Below are positions 2,203 to 21,842 of a stretch of DNA of 64,000 nucleotides, piece after piece. The notes below the pieces were generated by a model. It had not been told where the DNA came from. It ran no database searches and saw only the letters and a list, made by a program, of their open reading frames with translations. Within the stretch, counting starts at the first letter, position 1; each line of letters opens with the position of its first letter. The stretch is from positions 218,568 through 282,567 of the forward strand of contig CAWBIH010000002.1 in the NCBI GenBank assembly GCA_963788925.1. Direction: 5' to 3'. This stretch comes from an uncultured Actinomycetota bacterium. Lineage in GTDB: Bacteria > Actinomycetota > UBA4738 > HRBIN12. The position numbers and the translations under genes are program-made.

Positions 2203-4171
2203 CGCCGGAGCGGCCCGGGTGCGTCCGGCTGCGGGAACATCTCGACGCGAGAGACGGCCAGGCCGGCGCTTCGGACCTCCGGGGCGCGGGGCGAGCGCTT
2301 CGCGACGGCCTTGAAGAACGACTCGACCTCTTCTCGATCGAGCGTCTCCTTCTCCAACAGGAGGGCGGCCAGCTCGTCGAGCTTGCTCCGATGCTCATCC
2401 AGGATCTCGAGCGCGACGTCGTGCGCCTCGTCGAGCAGGTGGCTGACCTCCCGATCGATCTCGAACGCCACCGCGTCCGAGTAGTCGGGCGTCGTCGCCC
2501 AGTCTCTGCCCAGGAACACCTCGCCTTGCTTCTGTCCGAGGGTCCTCGGTCCGATCGAGTCGCTCATCCCGTGTTCGGTCACCATCTGGCGCGCGATCTT
2601 GGTCGCCCGCTCGATGTCGTTGCCGGCGCCGGTGGAGACGTCTCCAGCGACGATCTCCTCCGCGACACGCCCGCCCATCAGCATCGCCAGCTCGTCCCGG
2701 AGCTCCTCGCGCGTCATCATGAACTTGTCCTGCTCGGGAAGCGTAAGCGTGTAGCCGAGCGCGCGACCGCGAGGGATCACCGTGATCTTGTGCACCTCGT
2801 CGGTGTTGGGGAGGACATGGGCGACCATCGCGTGACCACCCTCGTGGTAGGCGATCAAGCGCCGCTCCGCCTCGCTCATCACTCGGCTCTTGCGCTCCGG
2901 CCCCGCCATCACGCGGTCGACGGCTTCCTCGACCTCTTTCATCGTGATGCTCTTCTTCGAGCGCCTGGCGGCGAGGAGAGCGGCCTCGTTGATCACGTTG
3001 GCGAGGTCGGCGCCGGTGAACCCCGGCGTGCGTCGGGCGAGGATGTCGAGATCCGCGCCCGGATCGAGCGGCTTCCCTTTCGCGTGCACGCGGAGGATCG
3101 CCTTCCGCCCCTCGAGGTCGGGACGGTCGACGACGATCTGCCGGTCGAACCGACCGGGGCGCAGGAGCGCGGGGTCCAGGATGTCGGGTCGGTTGGTCGC
3201 GGCCATCAAGATCACCGTGGTCCGCTGGTCGAAGCCGTCCATCTCCACCAGCAGCTGGTTCAGGGTCTGCTCGCGCTCGTCGTGTCCCCCGCCGAGCCCG
3301 GCCCCGCGGTGGCGGCCCACGGCGTCGATCTCGTCGACGAAGACGATCGCCGGTGCGCTCGCCTTCGCCTGCTCGAAGAGGTCACGCACCCGGGCGGCGC
3401 CGACACCCACGAACATCTCGACGAAATCGGAGCCACTGATGGAGAAGAAGGGAACGCCGGCCTCTCCCGCGACCGCCCGCGCGAGGAGGGTCTTGCCCGT
3501 GCCGGGGGGACCGAACAACAGCACGCCGCGCGGGATCTTCGCGCCCATCGCCTGGAACTTGGCCGGGTGCTGGAGGTACTCCTTGACCTCCTCCAACTCC
3601 TCGATCGCCTCGTCCACGCCCGCCACGTCCTTGAACGTGGTCTTGGGCTGATCCTTCCCGACGGTCTTGTGACGGCTGCGGCCGAACTGCATCACGCGCC
3701 CCCCGCCGCCCTGCGCCCGGTTCATCATCCAGAGGAACAGTCCGGCGAGCAGAAGGATGGGGAGGACGTAGTACAGGAGCCCAGACGAGCTCACTTGGCT
3801 TCTGAGGCTTGACTTCCGTCGGCACACCCGCGTCTTGGAGTTGGGTCGTGATCTCGTCGGCGCTCTCGGCGAGGAACGTGACCACGTAGTCCGTGCCGTC
3901 GTCGAGCTTCCCTTGGATCTGCTGGTCGCCCTCGAGGACGAGGCGCATCGCTGACCTTCCCCTCGTCGACCAGGTTCAGGTATGCACTCAGCTTGATCGT
4001 CTTCCCGGGCTCGGGCCGGGTCATGACGGAGAGCACGCCGAAGAACAACACGGTCGCGAGCACGATCCAGATGGTGGGGGTGCGGGCGAGTCGTCGGAGC
4101 GGGGGTTCTTGTTGGGACAAACCGGCCTCTTCCCTGGAGCGCGATCCTGGGGACGCAATGGGCCCCGGCAT
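2199..4171 (-). CDS. ftsH: ATP-dependent zinc metalloprotease FtsH, with N-terminal region split over three frames by two 1-nt frame breaks near 3790 and 3950
   Basis: The main 542-aa ORF (2199..3827) has the AAA Walker A motif GPPGTGKT, the SRH, and the HEGGH zinc site. TM1 and the periplasmic domain ([14 protein letters not shown] / [36 protein letters not shown] / [14 protein letters not shown]) read in two other minus frames at 3828..4171. Confidence 0.85.
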
Positions 4172-5244: not shown

Positions 5245-6274
5245 TCAGCTCTCCGGGGAAGGCGGGGAAGAACGAGAAACGCGAACGTACTCCTTCTCGC
5301 GGATCGCTTTCAAGCCGTTCGGGAGATCCCGCCTCCGGCCGGGCCGGCCGTTCGCGAGATCGAGGATCGATCCGATCGCCTCTTTCGTCCACGGCGATGC
5401 CGAGTCGGTCGAAAGGATGTTGTACGCGGCAAGCCGGATCACGCGCGAGGCGACCGATCGGGGCAACGCGAGGAGTTCGGTGGCCTTGAGCCGAATATCC
5501 GTTCCCCGGACGCCATCGCCGACGCCCTCGAGTGCCCGTACCGCGGCGGCGAACAGCTCATCGCGGTCGCCACGAAGCAGGTCTGCCGTCCTCGCGATCG
5601 ACCGGGTGACGCCTCGGCCCGTCTCGCGCTCCAAGACCGGCATGACCTCGTGCCGGATCGCGGCCCGTAGATAGCGGCGATCCTCGTTCATCGGATCGCG
5701 CCGAGGCCTGAGATGGATCGCCCGGCAGAACGCCTCCACATCTGCTCGTTCGACATCGAAGAGAGGTTGCACGAGCGCGCGGTTCCGGTGGCCAGGATCG
5801 ATCCCCGCGATCCCCTCGAGACCGGAGCCACGGATCAGGTTGAGCAAGACCGTCTCGGCCTGATCGTCGAGGGTGTGCCCCTCCGCGGTTGCGCTTGCCG
5901 CCGATCTCGCGACGAACGTCGTTCGCGGCGCTCATCCGAGCCACGGTGGCCCACGCCTCGACGGACACTCCCTTGCTCGGTCCGTCCTCGGCCGTTCGGA
6001 GATAGACCGGGAGCATCAAGCGTTCGGCGAGGTTCCGAACATACGCGGCGTCCTTCGCAGAATCGGGCCGCAGCTTGTGATCGAAGTGGAAGACCGCCAG
6101 CCGGATCTTGAACAGGCGCCGGAGGTGCCACAACGAATAGAGCAGACAGACGGAGTCCGGGCCGCCGCTGCACGCAACGAGCACGAGGTCACCGGGGCCG
6201 AACATCTCGTGCTCGCGGACCGTCTTGGTGACCCGCTCCAGCACCCTGGCGACCGCCGGAGGCCGGCGAGGCAT
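5245..6274 (-). CDS. tilS: tRNA(Ile)-lysidine synthetase TilS, split by one frame break near 5860-5890
   Basis: The N-terminal ORF (5558..6274) has the PP-loop SGGPDS. The C-terminal ORF (5245..5847) begins LNLIRGSGLEG and continues the TilS fold. The two frames join within the DDQAETV region at a GGGG run. Confidence 0.8.
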
Positions 6275-7378: not shown

Positions 7379-8086
7379 CTAGGCCTCGCCGGCGGCCTTC
7401 TTGCGCGCCGCGATCATCGCGGCGCGACGAGCCTGCCCCTCCGCGACGCGCTTGTCGGTCCCCTTGTCGAGCAGCTCCTTCAATGTCTGGTCGAAAACCT
7501 CCTGGTCCAATGCGACCTCGACCCGCTCGGCCGGGGGAGGTGCCGCGGCCGGGGGGGCATCGGCGGGTGCCGGCTGAGCTTGGGCCGCTTCCGCAGGGGC
7601 CTCCTCGCTCGCGGGCGCTTCCGGCGGCGCCTCGGTCGACGGCGCCTCAGCCGCCTGGGCGGGCGCGGGAGCCGGAGCAGCCGCAGCTGGCGCGGGCGCG
7701 GCGGCGGCAGCGGCCGCCGGCGCGGAGGCCGCGACACCGGCGGGCTGCGGCAAGGGCGGTGGGGCCACCACCATCGGAGCCGCCGCCTTGATGTCCACGG
7801 TGCGGCGCGGGAGCTCCTCGCCGGGGCGAACCCGGTCGGCGCGCACGACCTTCAGGGTCGACTCGTCAGTGGAGAAGCGCGGCGCGTAGCGGATGTAGGC
7901 GGCCACCAGCATCAAGAGCACGAGGAGTCCGATCGCACCGAACAGGATCGCCATCCCGTGGACCCAGCCGCCCGTGTTGATCTCGGGAGTGACGGAAGGG
8001 TCGACCGGGGTCTGGGCGAGAGCGGCGGTGGCAGGGAGGAGCATCACGAGGGCGGCGGCAGACATGATCGCTCGGAGGGCCCTCAT
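7379..8086 (-). CDS. membrane-anchored Ala/Pro-rich protein, unknown function
   Basis: Start reset to the ATG at 8086 (MRALRAIMSAAALVML...). The 376-aa track ORF runs through the tRNA and is too long. Signal/TM segment, a second TM, then a low-complexity (PA)n region and a charged C-terminus. Confidence 0.55.
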   Translation of the reverse strand: MRALRAIMSAAALVMLLPATAALAQTPVDPSVTPEINTGGWVHGMAILFGAIGLLVLLMLVAAYIRYAPRFSTDESTLKVVRADRVRPGEELPRRTVDIKAAAPMVVAPPPLPQPAGVAASAPAAAAAAAPAPAAAAPAPAPAQAAEAPSTEAPPEAPASEEAPAEAAQAQPAPADAPPAAAPPPAERVEVALDQEVFDQTLKELLDKGTDKRVAEGQARRAAMIAARKKAAGEA

Positions 8087-8152
8087 TCGCGGCGATTCTC
8101 CCAACCTGTGACCTCCTCCTGCAACTTTCGCCGGCGCCCGTGACGGCAGCCG

Positions 8153-8224
8153 AGCCGGAGATGGGATTCGAACCCATGACCTACCACTTACGAGGCGGTT
8201 GCTCTGCCACTGAGCTACTCCGGC
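8153..8224 (-). tRNA. tRNA-Thr (anticodon CGU)
   Basis: Reverse complement is GCCGGAGTAGCTCAGTGGCAGAGCAACCGCCTCGTAAGTGGTAGGTCATGGGTTCGAATCCCATCTCCGGCT. Cloverleaf folds with a 7-bp acceptor stem, D and T arms (GGGTTCGAATCCC), and anticodon loop CTCGTAA, giving anticodon CGT. Confidence 0.9.
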
Positions 8225-8339: not shown

Positions 8340-10448
8340 ATGGCATCCATCGACACCGACGCCGTGGGCCCGGTCCGCCGGGTGATGGTGGGCACCGATC
8401 GATCCGAAACCGCCACGAGAGCGGTCGAGTGGGCTGCCTCGTTCGCCGAGCGGTTCGGCGCCGAGCTCCACGTCGTGCAGGTGGTCGTCCCCCAGCACCC
8501 GGCCGACACGGAGTACGGCGCGGCCGAAGCGACGCGGGCGCACAGCGCCGCCGACGAGCTCCAGGTCTATACGACACAACTCGCGGGCGAGCGGGGACAC
8601 GCGCATGTGGTGATCGACGACGACCCCGCGATGGCGATCGTGCGCTCCTCCGAGGACCAGGCGGTCGACGTCCTGATCGTCGGGAACGCAGGGATGGCGG
8701 GCCGCAAGGAATTCCTCCTCGGGAACGTGCCGAACCGGATCAGCCACAACGCGCGCTGCACGGTGATCATCGTGAACACCACGAACGGCCAGACGACCGC
8801 GGTGCGGAACCCGTCCTCCGCCACCGCGATCCGTTCATCCCACGCGGAACCGGTGACCCGGCCGCATCTGGTCGCCCGCGGCACGAAGATCGGCGTCGTC
8901 TTCGCGAAGCACGGCCTGCGGGAGCTCTTCGGCCGACCCGACGAGGAGGGCATCGTGGGCCGGCGACGCCAGGCCAAACGACTCCGTACGGCATTGGAGG
9001 AGCTCGGTCCCACGTTCTGCAAGCTCGGTCAGATCCTTTCGACGCGGCCGGACCTGCTCCCGTCTGAGTTCATCGAAGAGCTCGCGACCTTGCAGGACAA
9101 CGTGCCCCCGCTCAGCGAGGCACAGGTCGTTTCGGTGATGGAGCAAGAGCTCGGCGTCCCCTGGGAGGACGTCTTCGAGACGATCGAACCGCACCCGCTC
9201 GCGGCCGGAACGATCGCCCAGGTTCACCGGGCGTCGCTCGCGACGGGAGAGAAGGTCGTGATCAAGATCCAGCGACCCGATGCGCGGGAGCTGATCGAGC
9301 AGGACCTCGCGCTGTTGGAGGTCTTCGCGGAGAAGGCATCGAAACGCCCCGGTCTGAAACTCGTCATCGACATGGAAGCGGTCTTCCAGCACCTGTCGGA
9401 CTCGCTCCAGCGAGAGCTGGACTTCCGACAGGAAGCCTCGAACATGCAGCGGATCGGTGAGGTGCTCGAACCCTTCCCGAGGCTCGCCGTGCCGGCGGTG
9501 CACCGTGACCTGTCCACCTCGCGGCTCCTGGTGATGCACGACGTGGGTGGGGGCCCGCTCGACTCGGCTCCTGAAGGCGCGCCGAGACAGGAGGCTGCCC
9601 GTCAGCTGCTCGAGTCCTTCTACAAGCAGATCATGGTCGACGGGTTCTTCCACGCCGACCCGCATCCAGGGAACCTGATGTGGCAGCCGCTGGAGGAGCG
9701 CCTGTACTTCCTCGACCTCGGGATGGTCGGCGAAGTCGGCGCCGACATGCGCGAACACCTGATGCTCCTCCTGATGGCGTTCTCTCAGGAGGACGTCGGA
9801 TTCCTGACGGACGTCACGCTGATGCTGGCGAACGCGATCGAGCGCAGCGACCTCGACGTGGACAAATTCCAGTCGGAGATCGGGGGGCTCATGGCTCGAT
9901 ACCGGACGTCCTCCCTGAAGGACATCCAACTCGGTCCGATCCTCCAGGAGATGACGGAGATCTCGCTCCGTTTCGGCGTGCCGCTGCCCGCATCGCTGGC
10001 GCTCACCGGCAAGGCCCTCGCGCAGATGCAGCTCGCGACCGCGCAACTCGATCCCGACCTGGATCCCTTCGAAGTGGCCGGCAAGTTCCTGATGCGCAGC
10101 CTGCTGCGCGGGATGGCCGGGCGGATCGATCCGAAGGCGGTCTTCTACCAGTCGCAGAAGCTGAAGGTGCGCGCGATGCGTGTCGTCGAGGCGATCGAGC
10201 GGATGATCGGCGCCCGGCCCGGTCAGAAGATGGAGATCAACTTCCGGGCGGCGCCGCTCGAGGCCACGGTGCGCCGGGCCGGGCGCCAGCTCGCGCTCGG
10301 TCTCACGGCGGGCGCGGCGATCCTCGCGAGCGGGCTGACCGCGATGTCGGCGCGGGTGCCCGGTTGGGTTCCGATCACGTTCGGCATCGTCGGCGGCGTG
10401 CTGACGTTCGGGTTGCTCCTGGACCTCTTCAACAACCGCAGCCGCTAG
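8340..10448 (+). CDS. universal stress protein domain fused to an ABC1/UbiB-family atypical protein kinase with C-terminal TM helices
   Basis: N-terminus has the USP ATP-binding signature (VGNAGMAGRKEFLLGNVPNRISH). The remainder shows ABC1/UbiB kinase motifs (EELGPTFCKLGQILSTRPDLLP, HADPHPGNL). Start taken at the in-frame ATG at 8340. Confidence 0.75.
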   Translation: MASIDTDAVGPVRRVMVGTDRSETATRAVEWAASFAERFGAELHVVQVVVPQHPADTEYGAAEATRAHSAADELQVYTTQLAGERGHAHVVIDDDPAMAIVRSSEDQAVDVLIVGNAGMAGRKEFLLGNVPNRISHNARCTVIIVNTTNGQTTAVRNPSSATAIRSSHAEPVTRPHLVARGTKIGVVFAKHGLRELFGRPDEEGIVGRRRQAKRLRTALEELGPTFCKLGQILSTRPDLLPSEFIEELATLQDNVPPLSEAQVVSVMEQELGVPWEDVFETIEPHPLAAGTIAQVHRASLATGEKVVIKIQRPDARELIEQDLALLEVFAEKASKRPGLKLVIDMEAVFQHLSDSLQRELDFRQEASNMQRIGEVLEPFPRLAVPAVHRDLSTSRLLVMHDVGGGPLDSAPEGAPRQEAARQLLESFYKQIMVDGFFHADPHPGNLMWQPLEERLYFLDLGMVGEVGADMREHLMLLLMAFSQEDVGFLTDVTLMLANAIERSDLDVDKFQSEIGGLMARYRTSSLKDIQLGPILQEMTEISLRFGVPLPASLALTGKALAQMQLATAQLDPDLDPFEVAGKFLMRSLLRGMAGRIDPKAVFYQSQKLKVRAMRVVEAIERMIGARPGQKMEINFRAAPLEATVRRAGRQLALGLTAGAAILASGLTAMSARVPGWVPITFGIVGGVLTFGLLLDLFNNRSR

Positions 10449-10870
10449 GCGGAGCCGGCGCTGTCGACGCGCTCCTGGACCTCGCGCAGTCGCTCGACGA
10501 CGCCGTGGAGGATCGCGACCGCGACGCTCGGGTTCTGGATCAGGAACGGGTCGAAGTAGATCGTCTCGATCACCAAGGCCTCCACCGGCTCCGCCGCCGT
10601 GACGCTCGCGGACCGGCGCGTGTGTCCGAGCAACGCCATCTCGCCGAAGAAGTCTCCGGGCGCGAGGTCGTGGACGGCGCCGCCGACCTCGACCTGCGCG
10701 GCACCCGACAGGATCACGAAGAGGCCGCCGCGGTCGGAGTCGCGCTCGACGAGCGCGTCGCCGGCCGCGTAGCTGCGTCGCTGACCGACCTTGGCGACAC
10801 GCGAGAGATCGTCGTCCGTCAGCTCCTCGAAGAAGCGGACCTTGCGGAGGGCCTCGACATCGCTCGTCAT
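10445..10870 (-). CDS. stand-alone cyclic-nucleotide-binding (CAP-effector) domain protein
   Basis: 141 aa with a canonical phosphate-binding cassette (FGEMALL ... RRSASVTA). Confidence 0.8.
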   Translation of the reverse strand: MTSDVEALRKVRFFEELTDDDLSRVAKVGQRRSYAAGDALVERDSDRGGLFVILSGAAQVEVGGAVHDLAPGDFFGEMALLGHTRRSASVTAAEPVEALVIETIYFDPFLIQNPSVAVAILHGVVERLREVQERVDSAGSA

Positions 10871-10885
10871 CTCATCTCCTCCCGA

Positions 10886-13232
10886 TCATCCTAATGAGAC
10901 GAGCTCCACGGCCTCGTCGCGGAGCTTCGCGGGGTCGGCCAGGCCGCCCGACCGGATGATGCCCATCGCATCCTGGACGTCGGCGGGACGGTCCACGGAG
11001 ACCACGGCCTGGACCCGGCCGTCGAGCATGTAGAAAGCGGCGAAGCTCCGCGACTCCAGGCTCCCGCGGATCACCAGGTCGTCCCACTCCCGGTGATACC
11101 CGGCGTACTGGATGGTGTGCTCGTACTGATCCGACCAGAACCAGTGGATCTCCTCGTACGGCGTGTCGCGGCCGAGCATGTTCAGGGCCGCGGCACGCCC
11201 CTGACGCCGCGCGTTGTCCCAGTGCTCGACCCGGATCCGGCGCCCGTAGATCGGGTGGTAGTGGTTGGCGACGTCGCCGGCGGCGAAGACGCCGTCGACG
11301 CTTGCCCGGCAGTGCTCGTCCACCACGACGCCGTCGTCCACCTCGATCCCCGATCCATCGAGGAAGCCGACCACCGGCTCCACACCGAGGCCGAGCACGG
11401 CGAAGTCGCACGACAGGCTGAGACCGCTCGCCGATCTCACCGTCCGGACGGCGGCCGTCCCCTTCGAAGCTCGCCACCTGATCATCGAACGTCATCTCGA
11501 CACCGTGATCACGATGGATGCCTTCGATCACGCGACCCACGTCCTCGCCCAGTACCCGGTCGAGGGGCGCCTTCCCGCCTGCGACGACGTGAACCTCGAG
11601 GCCTCGCTGCCGGAGCGATGCCGTCACCTCGGAGCCGATGAACCCCATCCCCGCCATCACGACCCGACGGCCCGGCAGCATCTCCGCGCGGATCGCGGCC
11701 GCATCGCCGAGCGTCCGCAGGTCGAGGACCCCTGCGAGGTCGATCCCCGGGATCGGGAAGCGCCGGTTGCGCGCACCGGTCGCGATCAGGAGCTTGTCGA
11801 AGGACACGGGATCGCCGCCCGCGACCGTGATCGTCTTCCCGGCGCCGTCCACGGCGACGACCGTCGTTCCGAACCGTGTCTCGATGCGGTTGTCGGCGTA
11901 GAACGCTTCGGGCCGGACCATGGCCTCCTGGATCGTCGACTCACCTCGGAGGAACGACTTCGAGAGCGGCGGCCGCTCGTAGGGGAACGTTGGCTCCGAC
12001 CCGATCAGCACGACCTCGCCGTCGAAGCCTTCCTCACGAAGGGTCGCGGCAGCCGTGGCTCCGGTGAGGCTCGCGCCCACGACGACATATCGTTCCTTCT
12101 TCGCGCCAGGATGGGTGTCCCGGCCGGCAGACGGCGCGGGAGATGGCGAGGCGGACACCTCCGCGCCTTCCGTCGCCGCTCGTTCTTCAGCCGGAGCCGT
12201 GCCTCCCACGCGTTCCAGTGGCTCGGCCGCGGGGCCGCGGACCACCGATCCGTCGAAGCCGAACCTCGAACCGTGGCACGGACAGTCCCAGGTCTTGGCG
12301 GAGTCGTTCCAGTCGACCGTGCAGCCCATGTGCGTGCAACGAGACGAGAGCTCGTACGTCTGGCCTCCCTCGTCGCGATAGACGGCGAGCTGCTGACCGT
12401 CGACGCTCACCAATCCCCCGTGGCCGGCCACGAGATCGTCCACCGAACGGTCCACGGTCTTCACGATCAAGACGTCCGAGGGCACCTCGTGGGCGACCTT
12501 GTTGGGCACGGATCCCAGGAACCGTCGAACGCCCGACATCCCCTTGTTCCCGACCACCACGAGCTGCACATCTTCCGACTCGGCCAGCTCGCAGATCCGC
12601 TGGGCGGGGTCTCCTTCGACGGTCCGCTTCTCGACCGTGACGTCCTCGGGTCGGGTCGAGGCGACCTCCTCGAGCTTGATGGCGCCGACCAGTGGATCGC
12701 CCACATGGACGAGCGTGACCGTGCCGGCGTAGACGGAGGCGAGCGTGTAGGCCTTGCGGACGGCTTCGGTCGCCGTCCCCGAGCCGTCCGTCCCCGCCAG
12801 GATCCGCATGTACGGCGGGGCGGGATCTCGCGGACCGGCGCGGCCGGTGGTGTCCACGATCAGGAGGTCGCAGGGCGCGTCATGCGCGATCCAGTCGGGC
12901 ACGCTGCCGAGTCGGAACCGGGTCGCCTGCCCCATGCCGCGGTTGCCGACGACGATCAGGTCGGCTCCGTGCTTGATCGCGGCCGCGAGGATGGATTCCC
13001 CGGGTGTCCCCTCGATCAATTCCGCGATCGCATCGACCTTCTTCGCACGCGCCGCCTCCGCCGCCTCGTAGAGGGCGGTCTGGAGCGGCTGCCGCGAGAT
13101 GCCGAAGGCGTCGAGCGCCCCGACGAGCACGAGGGTGCCGTGGAGACGTTTCGCGAGCTTCTGCGCCACCTCGACGGCGACCGACGCGGTCGGTGAGCCG
13201 TCGGTGCCGACGACGATCTTCCGGTAGGACAT
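10886..13232 (-). CDS. fusion of tandem universal stress protein domains, a Rieske [2Fe-2S] domain and an FAD/NAD(P)-dependent ferredoxin reductase, with a 1-nt frame break at the CCCC run 11459-11462
   Basis: One continuous 786-aa ORF holds two USP domains (VVGNRGMG..., VVGNKGMSG...), a Rieske CTHMGC...CPCHGS motif, and a reductase Rossmann start (VVVGASLTGATAA). The reductase C-terminus (GIEVDDGVVVDEHCRASVDGVFAAGDVANH) continues in ORF 10886..11485. Confidence 0.8.
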
Positions 13233-14030
13233 CTAGGCCGCCGCCTCCAGAGTGCCGTTCATCTGCGGATGGACGTCACATCGGAAGTAGTACGAGCCGG
13301 GATCGAGCGCCGGCACGTCATAGGTCACGGTCTCGGGGCCGTCGACGAGGTCGCCGACGAACAGCGACTCCGCCGCGGAGTCGTCCGTGTAGATCGCCAC
13401 GTTGTGCGGCACGCCATCGTCTTCGTTATCGAAGACCAGCCCGAACGCCTCGCCGGCCGGCGCGGTCAGGCGATCGCTCGAGAAGCTCTGGTCGTCGAAC
13501 GCGCACACCGTGACGGCCGCGTCCGGCGTAGGGGAACACTCGGCTTCCGTCCCACCGAACCCGAGCGTCGGCTTGAAGATCATCAGCCAGAGGATCGCGA
13601 GTAGGCCGACGAAGCCGACCGCCGCGATCGTGTACGGCCGCTTCGAATGGAGGATCTCCTCGAACTGCTCCTGGGAGACCGCCTCGGTTCCCCCCACCTT
13701 CGCAGCGGAGATCGTCCGCAGCCGCTTGGCCCATGTGGTTCCCATGGCGTACATCGCGGCGATGACCGCGACGAGGATCACGATCGCCGCCCAGATCCAC
13801 GCCTGCCCCCAGAAGTGACCCGTGAACCCGGCCAGGATCCCTCCCAGCAAGAGGAGGCCGATCGAGTTCCACATGAACCCGACCGAGGACGCCGAGAGCT
13901 CGAGCAGATGGCTCACCCGCGCCGGGTCGCGCTCCCTCGGGAGCCGCAGCGTCACGTACGCCGAAACGCCGTGCGCCATCAGGAAGCCGAACACGCCGGC
14001 GATGTGAAGGAACACCCACCATCGATGCAC
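13233..14030 (-). CDS. membrane-anchored cupredoxin (type-1 blue copper) protein
   Basis: Four N-terminal TM helices, then a plastocyanin/azurin-like domain. Candidate copper ligands are His (VPHNVAIY) and the Cys-x2-His-x2-Met in YYFRCDVHPQMNG. Its stop abuts the start of the USP-Rieske gene. Confidence 0.7.
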   Translation of the reverse strand: MHRWWVFLHIAGVFGFLMAHGVSAYVTLRLPRERDPARVSHLLELSASSVGFMWNSIGLLLLGGILAGFTGHFWGQAWIWAAIVILVAVIAAMYAMGTTWAKRLRTISAAKVGGTEAVSQEQFEEILHSKRPYTIAAVGFVGLLAILWLMIFKPTLGFGGTEAECSPTPDAAVTVCAFDDQSFSSDRLTAPAGEAFGLVFDNEDDGVPHNVAIYTDDSAAESLFVGDLVDGPETVTYDVPALDPGSYYFRCDVHPQMNGTLEAAA

Positions 14031-14033
14031 GGC

Positions 14034-14204
14034 CTACTCCTCCCCCACGGTGACGGCGGCGGCCGTCGACTCCGGCCTCGCCTGTTCCTTCTTCTTGATC
14101 TGGCGCATCACGAGACGCTCCAGCACGAACACGAGCACGGCCATGAAGACGCCGACGAGCCACCGCTCGAAGCGACGGAAAGGGGACCGTCCCTGAGACG
14201 TCAC
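14034..14204 (-). CDS. small single-TM protein (about 57 aa)
   Basis: GTG start at 14204 overlaps the upstream stop as GTGA. Has a hydrophobic helix (LVGVFMAVLVFVL) and a basic tail. A real CDS is uncertain. Confidence 0.4.
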   Translation of the reverse strand: MTSQGRSPFRRFERWLVGVFMAVLVFVLERLVMRQIKKKEQARPESTAAAVTVGEE

Positions 14205-14966
14205 CCGGTGGATGCCTCCCGCGCCGCTTCGACACGGGCGAGGAGCCAGAATCCGATGCCGGCGGCGACCGCCAGCCACGACCACCCGTTCGGCGGCGCG
14301 CCCGCGTAGCCGGCGAACACGAGGCCGGCCACACCGAAGAGGACCGCCGCGATCGACGCCGCCGTGCCCGCGAACTCCCAACCGACGCCGCGCAGAGACG
14401 TCGCGATCCCGGCACCTGCGATCGAGAGCGCGGCCACGGCGACACCCGACCAGTGGTGCATCTGGACGTGCGGGTCCGCGGCCGGTCCGTGCTGGAGCTC
14501 CGCCTCGGTCACCGCGTAGATCCAGGCCGGCATCGTCGCGATCACGGCATAGGTCATCAGCGCGATGCTCGGGTGTCCGGGGAGCCGGAGGAGCGACCGG
14601 GGATCTGGATGCAGCAGCAGCAAGACGATCACCCCGATCGGACCGGAGACGTAGAAGCCGGTCAGGAAGTCACCACCCATCAACCCGCCGATCGTCCACG
14701 CGATCGCCTGGGCGACGAGGACGTGGAAGGCAGACGTCCAGCCCGGTCGCACTGACCAGGGCGATCGAGAACACGCCGATCAGTCCCCCGCCGGCGAGAC
14801 CCGCGAGGTAGTGGAAACGATGGATCGTGTCGGAGAGATCGCCGGACACGATCGACAACAGGACGAGGAACAGCGAGTACCCGATCGTGAGCACTCCGAA
14901 GATCCAGCCGACGAGGCGGAAGGCCAGCCGCCCCCGAGATACGTCCGGTGTGTAGGTGGATCCCAT
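14201..14966 (-). CDS. polytopic integral membrane protein of unknown function, with a frame break near 14730-14760
   Basis: ORFs 14670..14966 and 14201..14752 are both strongly hydrophobic and consecutive, giving about 8 predicted TM segments. I do not recognise the family. Confidence 0.5.
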
Positions 14967-14990: not shown

Positions 14991-17067
14991 TCAGGCAGCC
15001 GTGACCGGCACCCGGCCCGCTACCGTGGTGCCGCGGCCGGGTGCCGACCGGATCTCGAGAGAGCCTCCCACGGCTGCGAGCCGGTCGGCCATGCCCTGGA
15101 GGCCGGAGCCGGTGGCCACGGCGTCCGGGTCGAAGCCGCGGCCCTCGTCGACGACCTCGAACGAAAGGCTGCCGTTCGATTGCGACAGATGGATCACGGT
15201 GCGATCCGCGTCGGCGTACTTGGCAACGTTCTGGAGCGCCTCGAGGGCGCAGAAGTAGACGGTGGCCTCCACGTCGACGGAGTAACGGCCCACCGCGTCC
15301 GCCTCCACGCTCACGGGGACGGCAGCCTTCCTTGACTGCGCCTCGAGGGCTGCGACCAAACCACGATCGGCGAGCAGCGGAGGATAGATGCCACGGGCGA
15401 GATCCCTCAGGTCTTCCAGCGCCGTCTGGGTCTCCGTCTCGATCTGGATGAGCATCTCCGCGGTCTTCGCCGGATCGCGCTCCGTCAGTTGCCGGGCGAG
15501 CCGAGCCTTGACGGCGAGCGCGACGAGCTGCTGCTGGGCGCCGTCATGGATGTTGCGCTCCAGGCGACGCCGCTCCTCGTCCTGCGCAGCGACCAGACGC
15601 TGGCGTGAAGCCCGGAGGTCCTCCACGAGACGGACGTTGCGAAGCACGAGGCCCGCCTGGGCGGCGAGGTCGCGGACCAACTTCTCCTTCGTGGGATTCA
15701 TCGGGTCGGCAGCCGGCATGCGAACCGAAAGCGCCCCGAGGAGCTCCCCGCGATCGCGGACCTCGACGGCAGTTTCGCCCGGGACGCTCCACACCTCCCC
15801 GTCGGTGGTGGGGACAGCACCGATGACGGTCGCGTCTTCAGGCCAGGCGGCCGCCTGGCGAAGCTCGCGTCCAGCCCGTAACCACACGCGGGCCACCTCC
15901 GCGCCGGCGCCCTCGCCGAGTACCTGGGCCATCCGAGGCAGCACGTCCTCGGTCGCGTAGGACGTCCCCACGCGCTCGGAGAACTCCGTCAGCACCTCGT
16001 ACGGCGTGGCACGCCGGCCGTAGACGAACCGATCGACCACCTTGCGGGCGATGCGCATGACGGGTCGGAAGGCGATCCCGAGCAGGAGCGCGATGACGAA
16101 CAGGGATCCGGGACTTTGGCGGTCGGCGGCCGCAACGCCGAACAACGCGACCGCGCCCCCGTACACCGCGAGTGCCAACACCACGAGTGCTCCGGCGACG
16201 AGCGCCTTCTTCACCACGACATCCAGGTCCCACAGGCGGTACTGCAAGATCGCGATCCCGACGGTCAAAGGGATTCCGAGGAAGGCCAGGCCCGAGATGA
16301 ACTCGCCCACACCTCCCTCCGAGATGCCGAGGCCCTCGAGGATCGCGCTGATCACGAAGTAGGTGGCGAGCACGACGACCGCGAACGCGAACCATTTGAG
16401 CTGCTGTCGCTCGACGCCGCTCGACCGGCGGAATCGGATGACCATCGACGTGGCCGCCGCCGCGAAGAGGCCGAGGAGCACCGGCCAGAGCACGTTCCCG
16501 ATGGATTCGATCTCCAGCCCGGGGATATGCAGTGGGTTCGCGACCGTGATCGTTGGACCGACGTCACCGAGCTCGAACGTGGCTGTCCCGAACCCGATCG
16601 TGACGAACGCGAGGATCGAGATGCCGACACCCGCCCAGGCGAGCCACCGCCAGCGAGGTGACGGCAGCTCTCCGTTGGGGAAGACCAGGGGGAGGAGGAT
16701 CAACAGCGGGAAGAGCCCGAGGGCCCAGAGCGCGTTGCCCGGCCAGGCGAGCCACGACGCGAGAGCGGGCTCGCCTTGTGTGGCCGCGTAGATCGACGCC
16801 TCGCCGGTCGTGAAGGCCGCGCCCACCGTGATCGCGACCCAGAGGAGCAGCCATCCGATCCGATTGTCCGGTGCCCGGCTCAAGCTCAGGGCGCCGACGA
16901 CGCCCATCCCCATGAACGCGGTGAAGTTCGTGGAATCGCCGAGGAGCGAGTCATCCGTTCAGTGACACGAGGACCAGGCCGATCGCCGCGAAGCCAGCCG
17001 TGACCCAGAGCACGATCCAGGGCCATCGAGACGGCCGCGACGTCGGTGTCGCCGTAGTCGCGGCCAT
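14991..17067 (-). CDS. membrane sensor histidine kinase (multi-TM sensor - GAF-like - HisKA_3 - HATPase_c), paralogue 1, with a frame break near 16950-16980
   Basis: HisKA_3 motif (ERNIHDGAQQQLVAL) and HATPase G-boxes. The N-terminus (PSRWPWIVLWVTAGFAAIGLVLV) matches the paralogues at 19710 and 21839 but lies in another frame. The start ATG at 17067 shares one base with the upstream stop (TGATG). Confidence 0.8.
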
Positions 17068-18353
17068 CACGCGCCGCCCCCCAGGATCCGGAAGACTTCA
17101 ACAGGCTCTTCGCGGCCTTTGACGAGACGGGGACCGATCGACTCGGCGGCGACCGAGGGCGCCGCTGAGACGGTCGAGGCCGCGGCGACGACCTCGCCGC
17201 CCTTGGCCTCGGATTGGAGACGCTGCGCGACGTTGACGGCGTCGCCGATCACCGTGTACTCGAGTCGGCCGCCGCCGCCGATCGCGCCGGCCATGACGAT
17301 CCCGGTGTTCAGCCCGATCCCGACGTGAAGTCCGTCGACCGCCTCGGTCCCCCACCCCATCGAGTTGAGCTCGCGCTGGCGATCCTGCATGGCGAGCGCG
17401 CACTGCAGCGCCCGCTCGGCATGATCCGAAGACGGCTCCGGAGCACCGAAGACGGCCATCACGGCGTCGCCCTGGAACTTGTCGATCGTGCCGCCGTGCT
17501 CGGAGATCACCTCGGCCATCGCGCCGAGGTGACGTCCGACGATCTCGCCGATCTCCCGAGCCGTGAGTCGCTCCGCGATCGTGGAGAAGCCACGGATGTC
17601 GCTGAACAGGACGGTCACCTCGAGCTCGCGCTGGCTCGCGGCGTCACCGCCGCGAGCCAGCGCGTCCACGAACTGCGACGGCACGTAGGACTTGAGCGAC
17701 GTCGCCGTGGCCGACTGCTCGACGACCGCCGCGTGCAGCTTCTTGAACTCCCCCAGCAGGCCGGTGCCGGCTCCGCCGTCACCGGCCATCCGCCGGAAGA
17801 GCATCGTCACGCGCCCGTCCACGGCCTCTTGGGTCGTGCCCAGGGCGGCCGCCATCGCCTCGTAGCCGAGACCCTGAGCCATCATGTCGAGCACGATGCG
17901 GTCCTCCTCCTGGGACTCGGCCCGCCCCGACAGACGTTCGGCGATCGTGGGATCGACGACGCTCCCGCCGCTCTGCACTTCCCGGATCGCACGGGCGAGC
18001 TCGTCGCCCTGCGCGATCCGGTCCTTCAGCAGGTACGCGAGCCCGCTGTGTCCCTTGCCGAGCAGCGCGATCGCGTACTCCTCGTCGTCGTGCGCCGAAA
18101 GCACCACCACGCCCGTATCCGGGTGACGCTCGCGGATCGCGTGGGCGCAGTCGATCCCCTCGAGCTGGAAGGAGGGCGGCATCTTGATGTCGGTCACGAC
18201 GACGTCGGGGCTGTGCTCCGCCGCCGTCGCCAGGAGTGTCGGTGCATCCTCCGCGACCCCGACGACCTCGATGTCGTCATAGGAGTTCAGGAGCGCCCGG
18301 ACGCCCTCACGCACGAGGACGTTGTCCTCCCCGAGCACCACTCTGATCGTCAC
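17067..18353 (-). CDS. response-regulator receiver - LuxR-like HTH - class III adenylate/guanylate cyclase fusion
   Basis: GTG start at 18353. The REC domain has the phosphoacceptor context VVVTDIKMP. The HTH-like segment is DRIVLDMMAQGLGYEAMAAALGTTQEAV. The C-terminal cyclase homology domain includes VLFSDIRGFS, KFQGDAVMAVFGAP and IGLNTG. Confidence 0.75.
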   Translation of the reverse strand: MTIRVVLGEDNVLVREGVRALLNSYDDIEVVGVAEDAPTLLATAAEHSPDVVVTDIKMPPSFQLEGIDCAHAIRERHPDTGVVVLSAHDDEEYAIALLGKGHSGLAYLLKDRIAQGDELARAIREVQSGGSVVDPTIAERLSGRAESQEEDRIVLDMMAQGLGYEAMAAALGTTQEAVDGRVTMLFRRMAGDGGAGTGLLGEFKKLHAAVVEQSATATSLKSYVPSQFVDALARGGDAASQRELEVTVLFSDIRGFSTIAERLTAREIGEIVGRHLGAMAEVISEHGGTIDKFQGDAVMAVFGAPEPSSDHAERALQCALAMQDRQRELNSMGWGTEAVDGLHVGIGLNTGIVMAGAIGGGGRLEYTVIGDAVNVAQRLQSEAKGGEVVAAASTVSAAPSVAAESIGPRLVKGREEPVEVFRILGGGA

Positions 18354-18391
18354 GCAACCGCCCCCAACTTCCTCGCGTGTACCATCCGCGC

Positions 18392-19058
18392 ATGCCGCTG
18401 CGGGTGGTCTTCGCCGAGGATAACTACCTCGTGCGGGAAGGAACCGCCGCCCTCCTCGCGACCGCCGACGAGGTCGAGATCGTGGGCACGGCGGCAAGCC
18501 TCGATGAGCTGCTCTCCGCGGTCGACGAGCACGGACCCGACGCCGTGCTCACCGATATCCGGATGCCGCCCAGCGGGACCGACGAGGGGATCCGGGGTGC
18601 CAAGCAGATCCGCGCGTCGCACCCGGACATCGGGGTCGTCGTGCTGTCGCAGTTCGCGGAGGAGGAATACGCGTACGACCTGCTGAAGGACGGAGCGGCC
18701 GGCCTCGGCTACCTGTTGAAGGAGCGCGTGGCCGACGTCGAGGAGCTGGTGCGGGCGCTGACGGAGGTGGCCCGCGGTGGCAGCGTCCTCGATCCCGAAG
18801 ATCGTCGAGGCGCTCGTCGCCGCGAAGGAGCACCTCGCGCATTCGCCGCTCGCCAGGCTGACCGACCGGGAGCGCGAGGTGCTCGGCCACATGGCCCAGG
18901 GGCAGAACAACGCCGCCATCGCGAAGTCGCTCTTCCTCACCGAGCGCGCGGTCGAGAAGCACATCAACTCGCTGTTCCACAAGCTGGGACTGACCGAGGA
19001 GCCCGACGTGCACCGCCGGGTGATGGCGGTGCTCGCCTTCCTCCGCGATCAGTCGTAG
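18392..19058 (+). CDS. NarL/LuxR-family response regulator, with a frame break near 18790-18800 at a CCC run
   Basis: REC domain (MPLRVVFAEDNYLVREG...VLTDIRMP...), then a LuxR HTH (LTDREREVLGHMAQGQNNAAIAKSLFLTERAVEKHINSLFHKL) in the next frame. Transcribed divergently from the cyclase gene. Confidence 0.8.
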
Positions 19059-19099
19059 CGCGGCCACTCGTCGCGCCCGCAACCGGCCACCGTGCATCG

Positions 19100-19507
19100 T
19101 CACTGCGCTTTCCGCGTATCGACGATGTAGACGCTGCAGGGGGCGTGCCGGAGCACGAGGTTGGGAACGCTTTCGCGGACGTGCCACCGGGATCCCTGGG
19201 TCCCCCGGTTCCCGAGCACGATCGTCTCGGCCATGACCTCCGCCGCGACATCGCAGATCCGAGACGCCGCGTCCCCGTCCTCGATCCGAGTCTTGACCGA
19301 TGTTCCCGGGAAGCGCGCGGCCAGTCGCTGCAGGTGCGCTCGCGGATCTGCCGCCCGGTCCGGGTCGACGACCGCCCGGATGTCGCCCTCCGGCTTCACA
19401 TACAGCACCAGCAGCTCGGCGCCGCGCTCGCGCGCGAGTCGCGCCGCGTCCTCGACCGCGAGATCCGCGGCCGCCGAGGTGTCTGTTCCCACCAGGATCG
19501 TTGTCAT
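19100..19507 (-). CDS. universal stress protein (UspA family)
   Basis: 135 aa with USP fold motifs (ILVGTDTS..., LGNRGTQGSRWHVRESVPNLVLRHAPCSVYIV). Confidence 0.8.
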   Translation of the reverse strand: MTTILVGTDTSAAADLAVEDAARLARERGAELLVLYVKPEGDIRAVVDPDRAADPRAHLQRLAARFPGTSVKTRIEDGDAASRICDVAAEVMAETIVLGNRGTQGSRWHVRESVPNLVLRHAPCSVYIVDTRKAQ

Positions 19508-19709
19508 CGTGGGCCTCCTTCGTTCGTCACCGCGACGCTACGCCGCCGACCCGAGCCCGACGACGGCGCCCGCATGCCGAGTTCGGCAGGGTGCCAGCAC
19601 CCCGGTCCGAGGGGTGTTCGAGGACGCGGAACCGCAGGTCGGCCCCATTGGCCCGCGGAGCGCCGGGTGGGACGATTCGGTTCGATATGGACGGACCGAA
19701 GGCGATCAC

Positions 19710-21842
19710 GTGAGCTTGCCGGCGACGCAGGCCCGGCTCGATCAGCCCAGATCGCGCTGGCCGTGGCTGCTCTGCGCGCTCGCGGTGCTCCTGGTGCTCG
19801 CGGCGATCACGCTCTACGTCATCGGCGGACCCGGCGACCAGGCTTCGACGGACACCCTCGTGTTCCTGCCTGTGGTCCTCCTCACCATCCTGGGCTACTC
19901 GACCGTCGGGGCGATCCTCGCCTCGAGGAACACGAGGAACCCGATGGGCTGGATCATGTTGACGGTCGGTCTTGCCTTCGCCCTCGCACAGGCGACGGAG
20001 ACCTACGCCAAGTACACCCTGGAGATCGATCCCGGCGTCCTCCCGTTCGGTGCGGTCGCCGCCTGGTTCGGGACCTGGGACTACGCCGTCGCGTTCTGCG
20101 CGCTTCTGGTTCTCGCCCAGCTGTATCCCTCGGGCCGTGTCCTCAGCCCCCGCTGGCGGAAAGTGCCATGGATCGTGGTGGCGGCCGCATCCGTCGCATC
20201 GGTGGGAACGGCGTTGGGTCCGGGAACGCTCGAGGTCGAGACCGGGTTCGCGGTCGATAACCCCTTCGGGCTCGAGGCGATCCGTCCGATCGTCGAGATC
20301 ACCGGTGGGATCGGATGGATCGTTCTGCTCGCCTCGGTGCCGGTCTCGATCGCGTCGCTCGTGCTGCGCTTCCGCCGCTCGGAGGGCGAATCGAGGCAAC
20401 AGATCCGATGGCTCGCCTTCATCGCCGTCGCGGTGGTCGCATCCCTCCTGCTTGCCGCCGCGGCCGTGATCGTCTTCGGAGAGCGATTCGACCGATCCAT
20501 CGGTCCAGAGGTGTTCTTCGGCGTGATCTTCTCGCTCATCGGCGTGGGCGTGCCGGCGGCGATGGGTGTCGCGGTCCTGAAGTACCGCCTCTACGACCTC
20601 GACCTCGTGATCAAGAAGACGATCGTGTTCGCGATCCTGGTCCTGCTGCTGCTCGCCCTCGTGGGCGTCGGCGCCCTGCTGCTCGGCGGCACGCTGGTGC
20701 CGTCGCTCTCCGACCGGCCCCCGCTGCTCGTCGTGTTCGGAGTCGTGTTCGGGCTGCTCGTCATCCCGGCGTACCGGCTGGCGCGCAGGATCGCGGATCG
20801 CGTGGTCTACGGCGGTCGAGCGTCTCCCTACGAAGTCCTTTCCGAGTTCTCCGAACGGGCGAGCGAGACGTACTCGACCGAGGACGTGCTGCCGCGGATG
20901 GCGCAGCTGATCGGCCAGGCCACGGGCGCGGACGCAGCGAGGGTGTGGCTCAAGGTCGGCTCCGAGCTGCGCCCGGCGGCCGCCTGGCCGGCCGAGGCGA
21001 TCGGGACACGATCGCTGCCTTCTCGTGACGGCGAGCTGCCCGACTTCGAGGACACGGCCGTCGAGATCCGCCACCAAGGTGAGCTGCTCGGTGCCCTCAC
21101 GCTCGAGATGCGCGCGAGCGATCCGATGAATCCGTCGAAAGAGCGGATCGTCCGTGACCTTGCCTCGCAGACCGGCCTCGTGCTTCGGAACGTGCGCCTC
21201 ATCGAAGAGCTCCGAGAGTCCCGGCGCAGGATCGTCACGGCGCAGGACGAGCGCGCCAGGAAGCTCGAACGCAACATCCACGACGGCGCACAACAGCAGC
21301 TGGTCGCGCTGGCCGTGAAGGTCGGGCTCGTCGAACGCCTCGTACAGGCCGACGCGCAGAAGGCCGTGGCGATGCTCGGCGAGGTGAAGAGCGAAGCCAA
21401 CGACGCGCTCGAGAACCTCCGAGATCTCGCGCGAGGGATCTACCCGCCGCTGCTCGCCGACCAGGGCCTCGCCGCGGCGCTGGGCGCGCAGGCTCGGAAG
21501 GTGTCGATCCCGGTCGCCGTCGAGCCGGACGGGATCGGCCGCTATCCGGAAGAGACGGAGGCGGCGGTGTATTTCTCCTGCCTCGAAGCCCTGCAGAACA
21601 TCACGAAGTACGCGGGCGCGTCGAGGGTGACCGTGCGGCTCGCTCAGGCCGACGGCACCCTTACGTTCGAGGTGAGCGACGACGGCCGAGGCTTCGACCC
21701 GGGCGTCGTCGGACACGGCACGGGTCTCCAGGGGATCGCCGACCGCCTCGCCTCGCTCGGCGGCGAGCTCGAGGTCAGGTCGGCGATCGGCGACGGCACG
21801 ACCGTTGCCGGACGCCTCCCGGTCCGTGGGGAAAGCCCATGA
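19710..21842 (+). CDS. membrane sensor histidine kinase (multi-TM - GAF-like - HisKA_3 - HATPase_c), paralogue 2
   Basis: GTG start at 19710 preceded by a GAAGG ribosome-binding site. The track ORF from 19161 overlaps the antisense usp gene and is too long. The GAF/HisKA_3/ATPase region is highly similar to the kinases at 14991 and 21839. Confidence 0.85.
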   Translation: MSLPATQARLDQPRSRWPWLLCALAVLLVLAAITLYVIGGPGDQASTDTLVFLPVVLLTILGYSTVGAILASRNTRNPMGWIMLTVGLAFALAQATETYAKYTLEIDPGVLPFGAVAAWFGTWDYAVAFCALLVLAQLYPSGRVLSPRWRKVPWIVVAAASVASVGTALGPGTLEVETGFAVDNPFGLEAIRPIVEITGGIGWIVLLASVPVSIASLVLRFRRSEGESRQQIRWLAFIAVAVVASLLLAAAAVIVFGERFDRSIGPEVFFGVIFSLIGVGVPAAMGVAVLKYRLYDLDLVIKKTIVFAILVLLLLALVGVGALLLGGTLVPSLSDRPPLLVVFGVVFGLLVIPAYRLARRIADRVVYGGRASPYEVLSEFSERASETYSTEDVLPRMAQLIGQATGADAARVWLKVGSELRPAAAWPAEAIGTRSLPSRDGELPDFEDTAVEIRHQGELLGALTLEMRASDPMNPSKERIVRDLASQTGLVLRNVRLIEELRESRRRIVTAQDERARKLERNIHDGAQQQLVALAVKVGLVERLVQADAQKAVAMLGEVKSEANDALENLRDLARGIYPPLLADQGLAAALGAQARKVSIPVAVEPDGIGRYPEETEAAVYFSCLEALQNITKYAGASRVTVRLAQADGTLTFEVSDDGRGFDPGVVGHGTGLQGIADRLASLGGELEVRSAIGDGTTVAGRLPVRGESP

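Follow-up and report, generated by a model that had tools for sequence, protein, structure and literature searches.

In a 64,000-nucleotide (nt) stretch of DNA from an uncultured soil actinobacterium (contig CAWBIH010000002.1; hereafter the window), the minus-strand gene at 13232..10886 encodes a protein that combines two universal stress protein (USP) domains, a Rieske [2Fe-2S] domain and a ferredoxin reductase. This gene is a fusion of genes that elsewhere are adjacent and separate, and the invariant partner of its USP-USP-Rieske part is a DUF2269 membrane protein, to which a cupredoxin domain is an optional C-terminal addition. With these known parts in a new combination, the DUF2269/USP-USP-Rieske module is an undescribed system; in a literature search, we found neither a function for DUF2269 nor a description of a USP-Rieske fusion. 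Our joint reading, to which we assign a probability of about 45%, is that electrons would pass from NAD(P)H via FAD and the Rieske cluster to DUF2269 and on to an outward-facing blue copper domain, with the USP pair docking or gating the transfer.

The list of open reading frames (ORFs) places a 786-amino-acid (aa) ORF on the minus strand of the window at 13232..10872. A preliminary description of this DNA had claimed that both USP domains, the Rieske module and the N-terminal half of the reductase share a single frame and that a frame break affects the reductase C-terminus alone. Both statements hold. Two Usp stretches, Rieske and positions 2-214 of the Pyr_redox_2 profile were all matched by Pfam inside the 786-aa ORF, while profile positions 217-291 and Reductase_C lie in another frame, in the overlapping ORF 11485..10886. 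The span 13232..10886 measures 2347 nt, that is, 1 mod 3. Its features are:

12849..13232, minus strand: USP domain 1, aa 1-128 (Pfam Usp; motifs in 113 of 113 homologues)
12456..12815, minus strand: USP domain 2, aa 140-259 (second Pfam Usp stretch; Protein Data Bank (PDB) matches MSMEG_3811, 5ahw, and Rv1636, 1tq8)
12213..12443, minus strand: Rieske [2Fe-2S] domain of the b6f/bc1 type, aa 264-340 (Pfam, phmmer against PDB, NCBIfam)
12096..12212, minus strand: Ala/Pro/Ser/Glu-rich linker, aa 341-379 (gapped alignment columns; predicted local distance difference test (pLDDT) below 50 at residues 344-378 in the AlphaFold2 (AF2) model)
11451..12095, minus strand: N-terminal part of the reductase, aa 380-594, with the FAD and NAD(P)H Rossmann folds (Pfam Pyr_redox_2 and Pyr_redox; tblastn)
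11450..11451, minus strand: single extra C, one of two Cs (sole gap column against L008, L009 and L001; also against L010)
10886..11449, minus strand: C-terminal part of the reductase in the shifted frame, i.e. the rest of Pyr_redox_2, Reductase_C and the TGA stop (Pfam, tblastn)

A search of 5.8 billion proteins listed 120 matches, and at least 113 of them are full-length homologues (764-789 aa, 57-97% identical). All 113 listed full-length homologues are annotated with Usp, Rieske, Pyr_redox_2, Pyr_redox and Reductase_C. They originate from JGI, ENA, NCBI and Logan assemblies; the label, where a name is given, is Actinomycetota. Since intact homologues of the same architecture come from independent assemblies, the chimeric join considered in the preliminary description is excluded. 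Clustering at 50% leaves essentially one full-length representative (in a library of 1.84 billion), so the fusion belongs to a narrow clade; with this single representative, the library is unsuited to measuring its spread. None of the models in an NCBIfam scan reached its cut-off for the fusion.

Genomic context carries the link to DUF2269. In 28 of 28 loci with enough flank, the USP-USP-Rieske gene has a DUF2269 gene as its direct neighbour, either upstream with a gap of 0-44 nt or directly downstream and convergent. These loci span 36-97% identity and have otherwise unrelated neighbourhoods. In every locus related to the window's, the partner gene precedes the fusion, even at 46%, 60% and 63% identity, where the remaining neighbours are unrelated. 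DUF2269 was missing from about 140 control loci (approximately 78 reductase-only loci, 61 with the same Rieske module without USP, and L091), so the association tracks the USP-bearing form and not the Rieske module as such. The reductase-only controls came from a scan of the genome collection with the full-length alignment, in which the reductase motif outweighed the others in the patterns, so that 78 of 80 loci had the reductase alone. The components are arranged in a series of separate and fused genes:

Series A: DUF2269 alone (about 155 aa) plus USP-USP-Rieske (L090, L092, L094, L095, L102-L105)
Series A': the same pair, DUF2269 directly downstream and convergent (L106, L108, L110, L111, L113-L115, L119)
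Series B: DUF2269-cupredoxin plus USP-USP-Rieske (L096)
Series C: DUF2269-cupredoxin, USP-USP-Rieske and a separate reductase gene with a 4-nt overlap (L098/L099, two independent assemblies)
Series D: DUF2269-cupredoxin plus the fused protein (window, L001, L002, L005, L008-L010, L016, L100)
Series E: reductase, then DUF2269, then USP-USP-Rieske (L101)

The separate reductase of series C is 62% identical to the reductase domain in the window, and nine of nine fused loci have a cupredoxin-bearing DUF2269. Because the reductase is found fused, separate downstream or separate upstream, the components belong together by the Rosetta-stone argument.

In the window, the partner gene (14030..13233, minus strand) lies upstream of the fusion on the coding strand, and its TAG stop abuts the ATG of the fusion. 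It comprises two domains:

13566..14030, minus strand: DUF2269 four-helix transmembrane domain, partner aa 1-155 (Pfam PF10027, alignment, AF2, Lys+Arg counts)
13233..13565, minus strand: type-1 (blue) copper cupredoxin domain, partner aa 156-265 plus the stop codon (ligands H209, C251, H254 and M257)

PF10027 was matched by eight of eight diverse partners (best E 2.6e-12). A relaxed Pfam scan of the DUF2269 domains for CopD, HemJ and cytochrome-b-like families returned DUF2269 only, and NCBIfam holds no model that matches the partner protein. Four long helices are present in its AF2 model, in agreement with hydropathy. Across eight DUF2269 domains that are 36-55% identical, H9 and H20 (helix 1), M93 (helix 3) and M150 (helix 4) are invariant, as are W74, W78 and W80 at the outer end of helix 3 and E33, D35 and P36 (ERDP) in cytoplasmic loop 1. 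When Lys and Arg were counted in 11 sequences, loops 1 and 3 contained 4-8 each, as against 0-1 in the N-terminus, in loop 2 and in the stretch that follows helix 4. Following the positive-inside rule, both termini of the partner, and hence the cupredoxin, are predicted to face outward. Some partners have a Cys pair and Ser/Pro-rich tails, which are typical of exported domains. All four copper ligands (H209, C251, H254, M257) are invariant, which makes the domain a member of the type-1 cupredoxins, and its closest structural match is the electron carrier auracyanin.

The cupredoxin had been proposed as a downstream electron acceptor. Conserved synteny supports the link between the two proteins, but the gene is located upstream, and direct transfer from Rieske to copper is topologically unlikely because the cupredoxin is predicted to be outside and the fusion cytoplasmic. 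The fusion protein begins straight at the first USP strand, with neither signal nor anchor, and should therefore reside in the cytoplasm.

The assignment of the USP region held in the profile scan: Pfam Usp was matched with E 6.6e-49 in two stretches, the first at aa 3-126. USP1 contains VGTDGS and an exact G-x2-G-x9-G-S motif (GNRGMGQATRFRLGS), USP2 contains AGTDGS and G-x2-G-x8-G-S (GNKGMSGVRRFLGS). Two copies of [GA]TDGS together with G-x2-G-x8/9-G-[ST] were found in 113 of 113 listed homologues. Both domains thereby keep the motifs predicted to bind nucleotides, and by fold and motif they would fall into the nucleotide-binding (UspFG/MJ0577-like) subclass of USPs (PF00582). An AF2 model of the whole fusion, built on a 14-sequence alignment (pLDDT 67), shows two alpha/beta USP domains. 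According to the PDB search, the closest solved relatives are the single-domain nucleotide-binding USPs Rv1636, MSMEG_3811 and TTHA0895. Compared to these, Rv2623 (2jax/3cis) scores lower in phmmer (E about 7e-8, no individually significant stretch). The label 'Rv2623-like' in the preliminary description is thus apt for the tandem arrangement, while the sequence is more similar to the single-domain USPs. Rv1636 and MSMEG_3811 are reported to bind cAMP. The tandem USP at the N-terminus had also been called unusual, but the USP-USP-Rieske unit itself is common as a stand-alone protein of about 345 aa in metagenome-assembled genomes (MAGs) of Actinomycetota: a search of the representative library revealed such proteins of 326-350 aa, and 117 of 120 listed 90%-identity clusters have the stand-alone length.

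The Rieske module (Pfam Rieske at aa 264-340, E 2.9e-13) carries the motif CTHMGC...CPCHGSRF. In 113 of 113 listed homologues we found CTHMGC...CxCHGS-[RKQ]-[FY], including the two extra disulfide cysteines. The Ser after CPCHG is present in all 113 fusions, the Tyr in 35 of them. With phmmer, cytochrome b6f PetC and small PetC3-like proteins ranked first among PDB entries (E 4e-14), ahead of arsenite oxidase AioB and bc1 Rieske proteins, and none of the best 60 of 75 matches (E <= 0.01) was an oxygenase or dioxygenase ferredoxin. The best NCBIfam match was PetC as well, far below its cut-off (67 versus 250 bits). Judged by these matches, the module is cytochrome b6f/bc1-like and not an oxygenase-type Rieske ferredoxin. 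Of the 'Rieske ferredoxin' in the preliminary description, the Rieske [2Fe-2S] part stands; a ferredoxin of the oxygenase type (BphA3, TodB, T4moC) it is not, since disulfide cysteines are present, PetC is matched and the conserved context is devoid of an oxygenase. Neither does the protein qualify as a subunit of a Rieske/cytochrome b complex: its N-terminus is USP, with no membrane anchor or Tat signal, and no cytochrome b gene was found in the neighbourhoods examined. Oxygenase ferredoxins have potentials of roughly -150 mV. In b6f/bc1-type Rieske proteins, losing the Ser/Tyr hydrogen-bond donors drops the potential from about +300 mV to +160 and +135 mV (PMC10172866). Since the fusion retains the Ser and often the Tyr, as b6f/bc1 Rieske proteins do, we infer that its cluster has a positive midpoint potential. 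The same WDCPCHGS-type module also occurs, with neither USP nor DUF2269, in 61 metagenome loci (L117-L179 except L119), one of which (L122) encodes a reductase-Rieske fusion.

For the reductase, the first part of the Pyr_redox_2 profile aligned at aa 381-594, and Pyr_redox_2 plus Reductase_C across the two frames assign it to the ferredoxin reductases of the glutathione-reductase fold. Compared to PDB entries, it matched FdR9, ArR, putidaredoxin reductase, TodA and BphA4 along its entire length (E 5e-74 to 6e-49); it also resembles the NCBIfam models AndAa and HcaD, below their cut-offs. The NAD motif GMGFIGSE is invariant in homologues, and the FAD motif reads GASLTG in the window and GAGxxG in some relatives. 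Between the Rieske module and the reductase, a linker of about 40 residues, rich in Ala, Pro and Ser, varies in length and sequence and is disordered in the AF2 model. That Rieske-reductase fusions exist was rightly stated before: we found them without USP, for example in P0280, P0305, P0309 and P0324, where the Rieske is of the oxygenase type. The reverse order, with a member of the same reductase family followed by a C-terminal b6f-type Rieske (CTHLGC...CPCHGS, about 535 aa, no USP), was seen in P0244 (L091 4295-5902) and P0247; the L091 locus has no DUF2269 neighbour.

We propose the following electron path. The C-terminal reductase would take a hydride from NAD(P)H onto FAD, and the FAD would pass single electrons across the flexible linker to the Rieske cluster of the same chain, as is standard chemistry for this reductase family. 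The tandem USP unit would bind a nucleotide (ATP or cAMP) and dock the Rieske module onto the cytoplasmic face of DUF2269, in a step that may depend on the bound nucleotide. DUF2269 would then move the electron across the membrane, via a cofactor possibly held by the invariant His/Met pairs, and the outward copper domain would reduce an extracytoplasmic acceptor. From the chain that leads from b6f to plastocyanin, it is known that a Rieske cluster of positive potential is thermodynamically fit to feed a blue-copper centre. Observed are the domain identities, the cofactor and ligand motifs, the conserved operon and the fusion/split series; which way the electrons flow, that DUF2269 acts as conduit and that USP gates the transfer, by nucleotide or stress as the preliminary description suggested, we infer. 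A more far-reaching version is rather unlikely in our view: DUF2269 would be a cofactor-binding four-helix conduit with His/Met pairs at two depths, USP-USP-Rieske its dedicated input subunit, switched by ATP or cAMP, and both genes together would export electrons to an extracellular blue copper domain.

Several observations weigh against the proposed path. In 17 of the 28 loci, DUF2269 has no cupredoxin and no reductase lies within the flank. The DUF2269/USP-USP-Rieske pair must therefore use other donors and acceptors, which limits the chain as drawn to a sub-lineage; as most core modules have neither reductase nor cupredoxin, the general role of the pair must be broader. In eight loci, the DUF2269 gene is convergent and not co-transcribed. 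The positive-inside rule is the single basis of the partner topology, and the DUF2269 cofactor is presumed. In many members the first Rossmann motif of the reductase is GASLTG instead of GxGxxG, and the spacer in the nucleotide motif of USP2 measures eight residues in the window's clade versus nine in 28 of 113 relatives. The AF2 model of the fusion has no confident inter-domain packing (predicted template modelling score 0.43).

The strongest rival to the electron path is a sensor or signalling role, although we consider it unlikely. The NAD(P)H/NAD(P)+ ratio would set the state of the Rieske cluster which, together with the nucleotide on the USP pair (ATP or cAMP), would control DUF2269 or another target as a readout of redox and energy state. 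Regulation is the typical task of USP domains, USP2 has its best PDB matches in Rv1636 and MSMEG_3811, which are reported cAMP binders, and both reductase and cupredoxin are missing from most core modules. The window is moreover rich in signalling genes (a cyclic nucleotide-binding (cNMP-binding) protein in the operon, a response-regulator-adenylate cyclase, at least two HisKA_3 kinases, USP genes and a USP-ABC1 kinase), and the cNMP-binding gene again lies beside the module in L096. But the signalling neighbours are kept among close relatives only and are absent in L002, L005 and L016, whereas a type-1 copper site and an FAD/NAD(P)H reductase, both complete, are what an electron-transfer system typically contains, and the reductase stays beside the Rieske protein in three independent gene arrangements.

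Two other functions can be imagined for the same parts. The fusion might be a soluble reductase and ferredoxin that supplies a Rieske oxygenase or P450, with USP stabilising it under stress and DUF2269 unrelated. This is what the automatic annotation 'phenylpropionate dioxygenase ferredoxin reductase' implies, and the likeness of the reductase to FdR9, ArR, putidaredoxin reductase, TodA and BphA4, its sub-threshold resemblance to AndAa and HcaD and the fusions of the same family with an oxygenase-type Rieske (P0280, P0305, P0309, P0324) point the same way. We nevertheless regard it as very doubtful. The Rieske module is b6f/bc1-type, with no oxygenase ferredoxin among the best 60 of 75 PDB matches, and its Ser (often also Tyr), kept as at positive potentials, would make it a poor reductant for oxygenases. 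In addition, no oxygenase or P450 gene was called beside the module in loci with listed gene calls, and DUF2269 is adjacent in 28 of 28 loci. A role in copper handling is just as improbable: an NAD(P)H-driven cupric reductase or a copper-uptake device, in which the outward cupredoxin-like domain and the DUF2269 bundle would bind and move copper ions instead of electrons alone. The invariant His, Met and Trp of the bundle do recall Cu(I) ligand sets (CusF, CopD chemistry). However, the copper domain has the full type-1 ligand set for electron transfer (His, Cys, His, Met), its closest structural match is auracyanin, Pfam shows no kinship with CopC or CopD, and a copper domain is missing altogether from most DUF2269 partners.

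Whether the gene is alive in the present genome depends on the frame break, which we located by DNA alignment with the intact genes of L008 (97% identical), L009 (95%) and L001 (87%). Across 2347 nt, the sole gap column is an extra C at window position 11450/11451 (GGCCG[C]CGTCC on the minus strand), and the identical insertion was found compared to L010. The preliminary description had placed the break in the run at 11459-11462, but this GGGG/CCCC run is kept in intact homologous genes too; the lesion is the extra C. Deleting it yields a 781-aa protein with ...FEGDGRVRTVRSASG..., in agreement with the homologues. Using tblastn, aa 1-594 of an intact homologue aligned to 13232..11451 and aa 595-781 to 11449..10889. 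As an alternative repair, we dropped a G from the GGGG run, which gives ...FEGTAAVRTV...; this was rejected, as the DNA alignment puts the extra C 9-10 nt further on. Programmed frameshifting was rejected as well, since every homologue is encoded in one frame.

The same kind of break is frequent in this assembly. When intact neighbour genes were compared to the window with tblastn, four further genes of the 16 checked within 17 kb showed frame switches, i.e. five of 16 with the fusion included. They encode FtsH (broken twice), TilS, a GerE-type response regulator and a 254-aa membrane protein:

3782-3944, 5831-5895, 14742-14752 and 18795-18799: single-base frame switches (FtsH twice, TilS, the 254-aa membrane protein and the GerE response regulator; tblastn against intact homologues)

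FtsH and TilS are normally encoded by essential genes. Because single-base breaks hit these two and two other neighbours, the assembly appears to be indel-prone, as is typical of long reads. One homologue from an 845-kb MAG contig, P0081, contains an internal out-of-frame stretch that regains the frame (a double frameshift, alignment columns ~666-730), so indel errors reach other assemblies of the gene too. A dead gene, or a fusion that is an assembly artefact in the present genome, is therefore a quite improbable reading of the +1 insertion that truncates the reductase: the 113 intact homologues rule out a chimera, the gene is 95-97% identical to intact ones and has no lesion besides the extra base, and FtsH, TilS, the response regulator, the 254-aa membrane protein and P0081 are affected in a similar way. 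The extra C is most likely an assembly error, and the organism probably makes the intact 781-aa protein.

How does this system relate to known ones? BphA4-BphA3, TodA-TodB and the Rieske-reductase fusions of about 520-545 aa share the reductase family and the logic of NAD(P)H to FAD to [2Fe-2S] Rieske; AIFM3-type proteins are a natural Rieske-reductase fusion in eukaryotes. Unlike the dioxygenase pairs, whose Rieske motif is CxH...CPWH and which have neither disulfide cysteines nor USP, the window contains a b6f/bc1-type Rieske that is tied to DUF2269, and no oxygenase partner was found. With cytochrome b6f (PetC, cytochrome f, plastocyanin; PetC3) it shares the PetC/PetC3-like Rieske, the disulfide cysteines, the Ser and a plastocyanin/auracyanin-like type-1 partner. 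But here the Rieske module has no anchor or export signal, is predicted to be cytoplasmic and has no gene for cytochrome b or f nearby. Whereas quinol reduces the b6f Rieske, the fused flavoprotein would do so in the window, where the copper domain is tethered to the four-helix DUF2269. The tandem USPs Rv2623 and UspE and the single USPs Rv1636/MSMEG_3811, TTHA0895 and MJ0577 share the Asp-containing N-terminal motif and G-x2-G-x9-G-[ST]; all of these are stand-alone USPs, whereas the USP pair in the window is fused to redox domains and resembles Rv2623 and UspE chiefly in arrangement.

On the membrane side, NOX, FRE and STEAP proteins and MsrQ with the flavin reductase Fre connect cytoplasmic NAD(P)H or flavin to an outside acceptor through a helical membrane conduit. 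Their likeness to the window system lies in the proposed function only: these conduits are six-helix di-heme b proteins and have no Rieske or blue copper, while DUF2269 has four helices and no detectable relation to them in sequence or specific fold. In an HMM-HMM comparison, DUF989 was distantly similar to DUF2269 (E = 0.15; PMC4562309). DUF989 is part of the membrane urate oxidase PuuD, in which, as in the partner protein of the window, a helical membrane domain of an uncharacterised family bears an outward one-electron carrier. This similarity is marginal, however; the carrier of PuuD is heme c, not copper, and PuuD has no Rieske, USP or reductase partner.

Few domains are as widespread in bacteria as USP, whose mechanisms are poorly understood. 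With a tandem USP hard-wired to a redox chain and to a specific membrane partner, nucleotide binding by USPs gains an output that is concrete and can be tested, namely electron transfer. For DUF2269, a family without known function, the strict pairing is a first functional handle, and the separate-to-fused gene series reveals which components cooperate. If DUF2269 is indeed a conduit, Gram-positive soil bacteria would have a compact new route to move reducing power over the membrane; if gating is true in addition, the chain would count as a new type of regulated trans-membrane redox system, and a mechanistic role in gating electron transfer would be assigned to USPs for the first time. The current annotations of module proteins, 'phenylpropionate dioxygenase ferredoxin reductase' and 'universal stress protein', are both misleading.

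The true downstream neighbour of the fusion is a cNMP-binding gene. It starts 15 nt past the fusion stop, behind AGGAGA, and is likely to be co-transcribed with the fusion; it was found only in close relatives and, divergently oriented, in L096. Promoter and terminator signals in a scan of the operon were no stronger than chance. Upstream of the module, a signalling cluster occupies both strands of the window at 14991-19507 and extends to 23920. The respective genes are:

10445..10870, minus strand: stand-alone cNMP-binding protein, 141 aa (Pfam cNMP_binding, E 7e-16)
16913..14991: HisKA_3 kinase with a GAF-like region
18353..17067: response-regulator-adenylate/guanylate cyclase
within the signalling cluster, plus strand: GerE response regulator
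19507..19100: single-domain USP
19161-21842 and 21839-23920: two paralogous HisKA_3 kinases (about 69% DNA identity to the HisKA_3 kinase at 16913..14991)

Together with the cNMP-binding gene, this cluster suggests cAMP signalling around the module in the window's clade. Directly upstream of the DUF2269-cupredoxin gene, a 56-aa ORF (14037-14204, minus strand) and the frameshifted gene of the 254-aa membrane protein (14204-14966, minus strand) are kept in L001, L008 and L009; Pfam matched neither, and in this clade both may be part of the same operon. On the other side, a second USP fusion protein of the neighbourhood is encoded convergently with the operon at 8340-10448 (plus strand). There, USP is fused to an atypical kinase of the ABC1/UbiB type (about 702 aa by homology), and this USP-ABC1 fusion is kept in the close relatives L001 and L008-L010. 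Between its gene and a hypothetical gene (8086..7382) lies a tRNA-Thr (CGT) at 8152-8224 (minus strand).

Outside the window, two modules have other flavoproteins as neighbours, which may act as alternative electron donors. In L092 (7050-8231), an FMN-dependent dehydrogenase overlaps the USP-USP-Rieske gene by 4 nt. In L095 (6001-7425 and 7415-8653), an NDH-2-type Pyr_redox_2 protein is encoded convergently, and the 474-aa USP-USP-Rieske protein of this locus has a second Rieske domain, which is of the Rieske_2 type.

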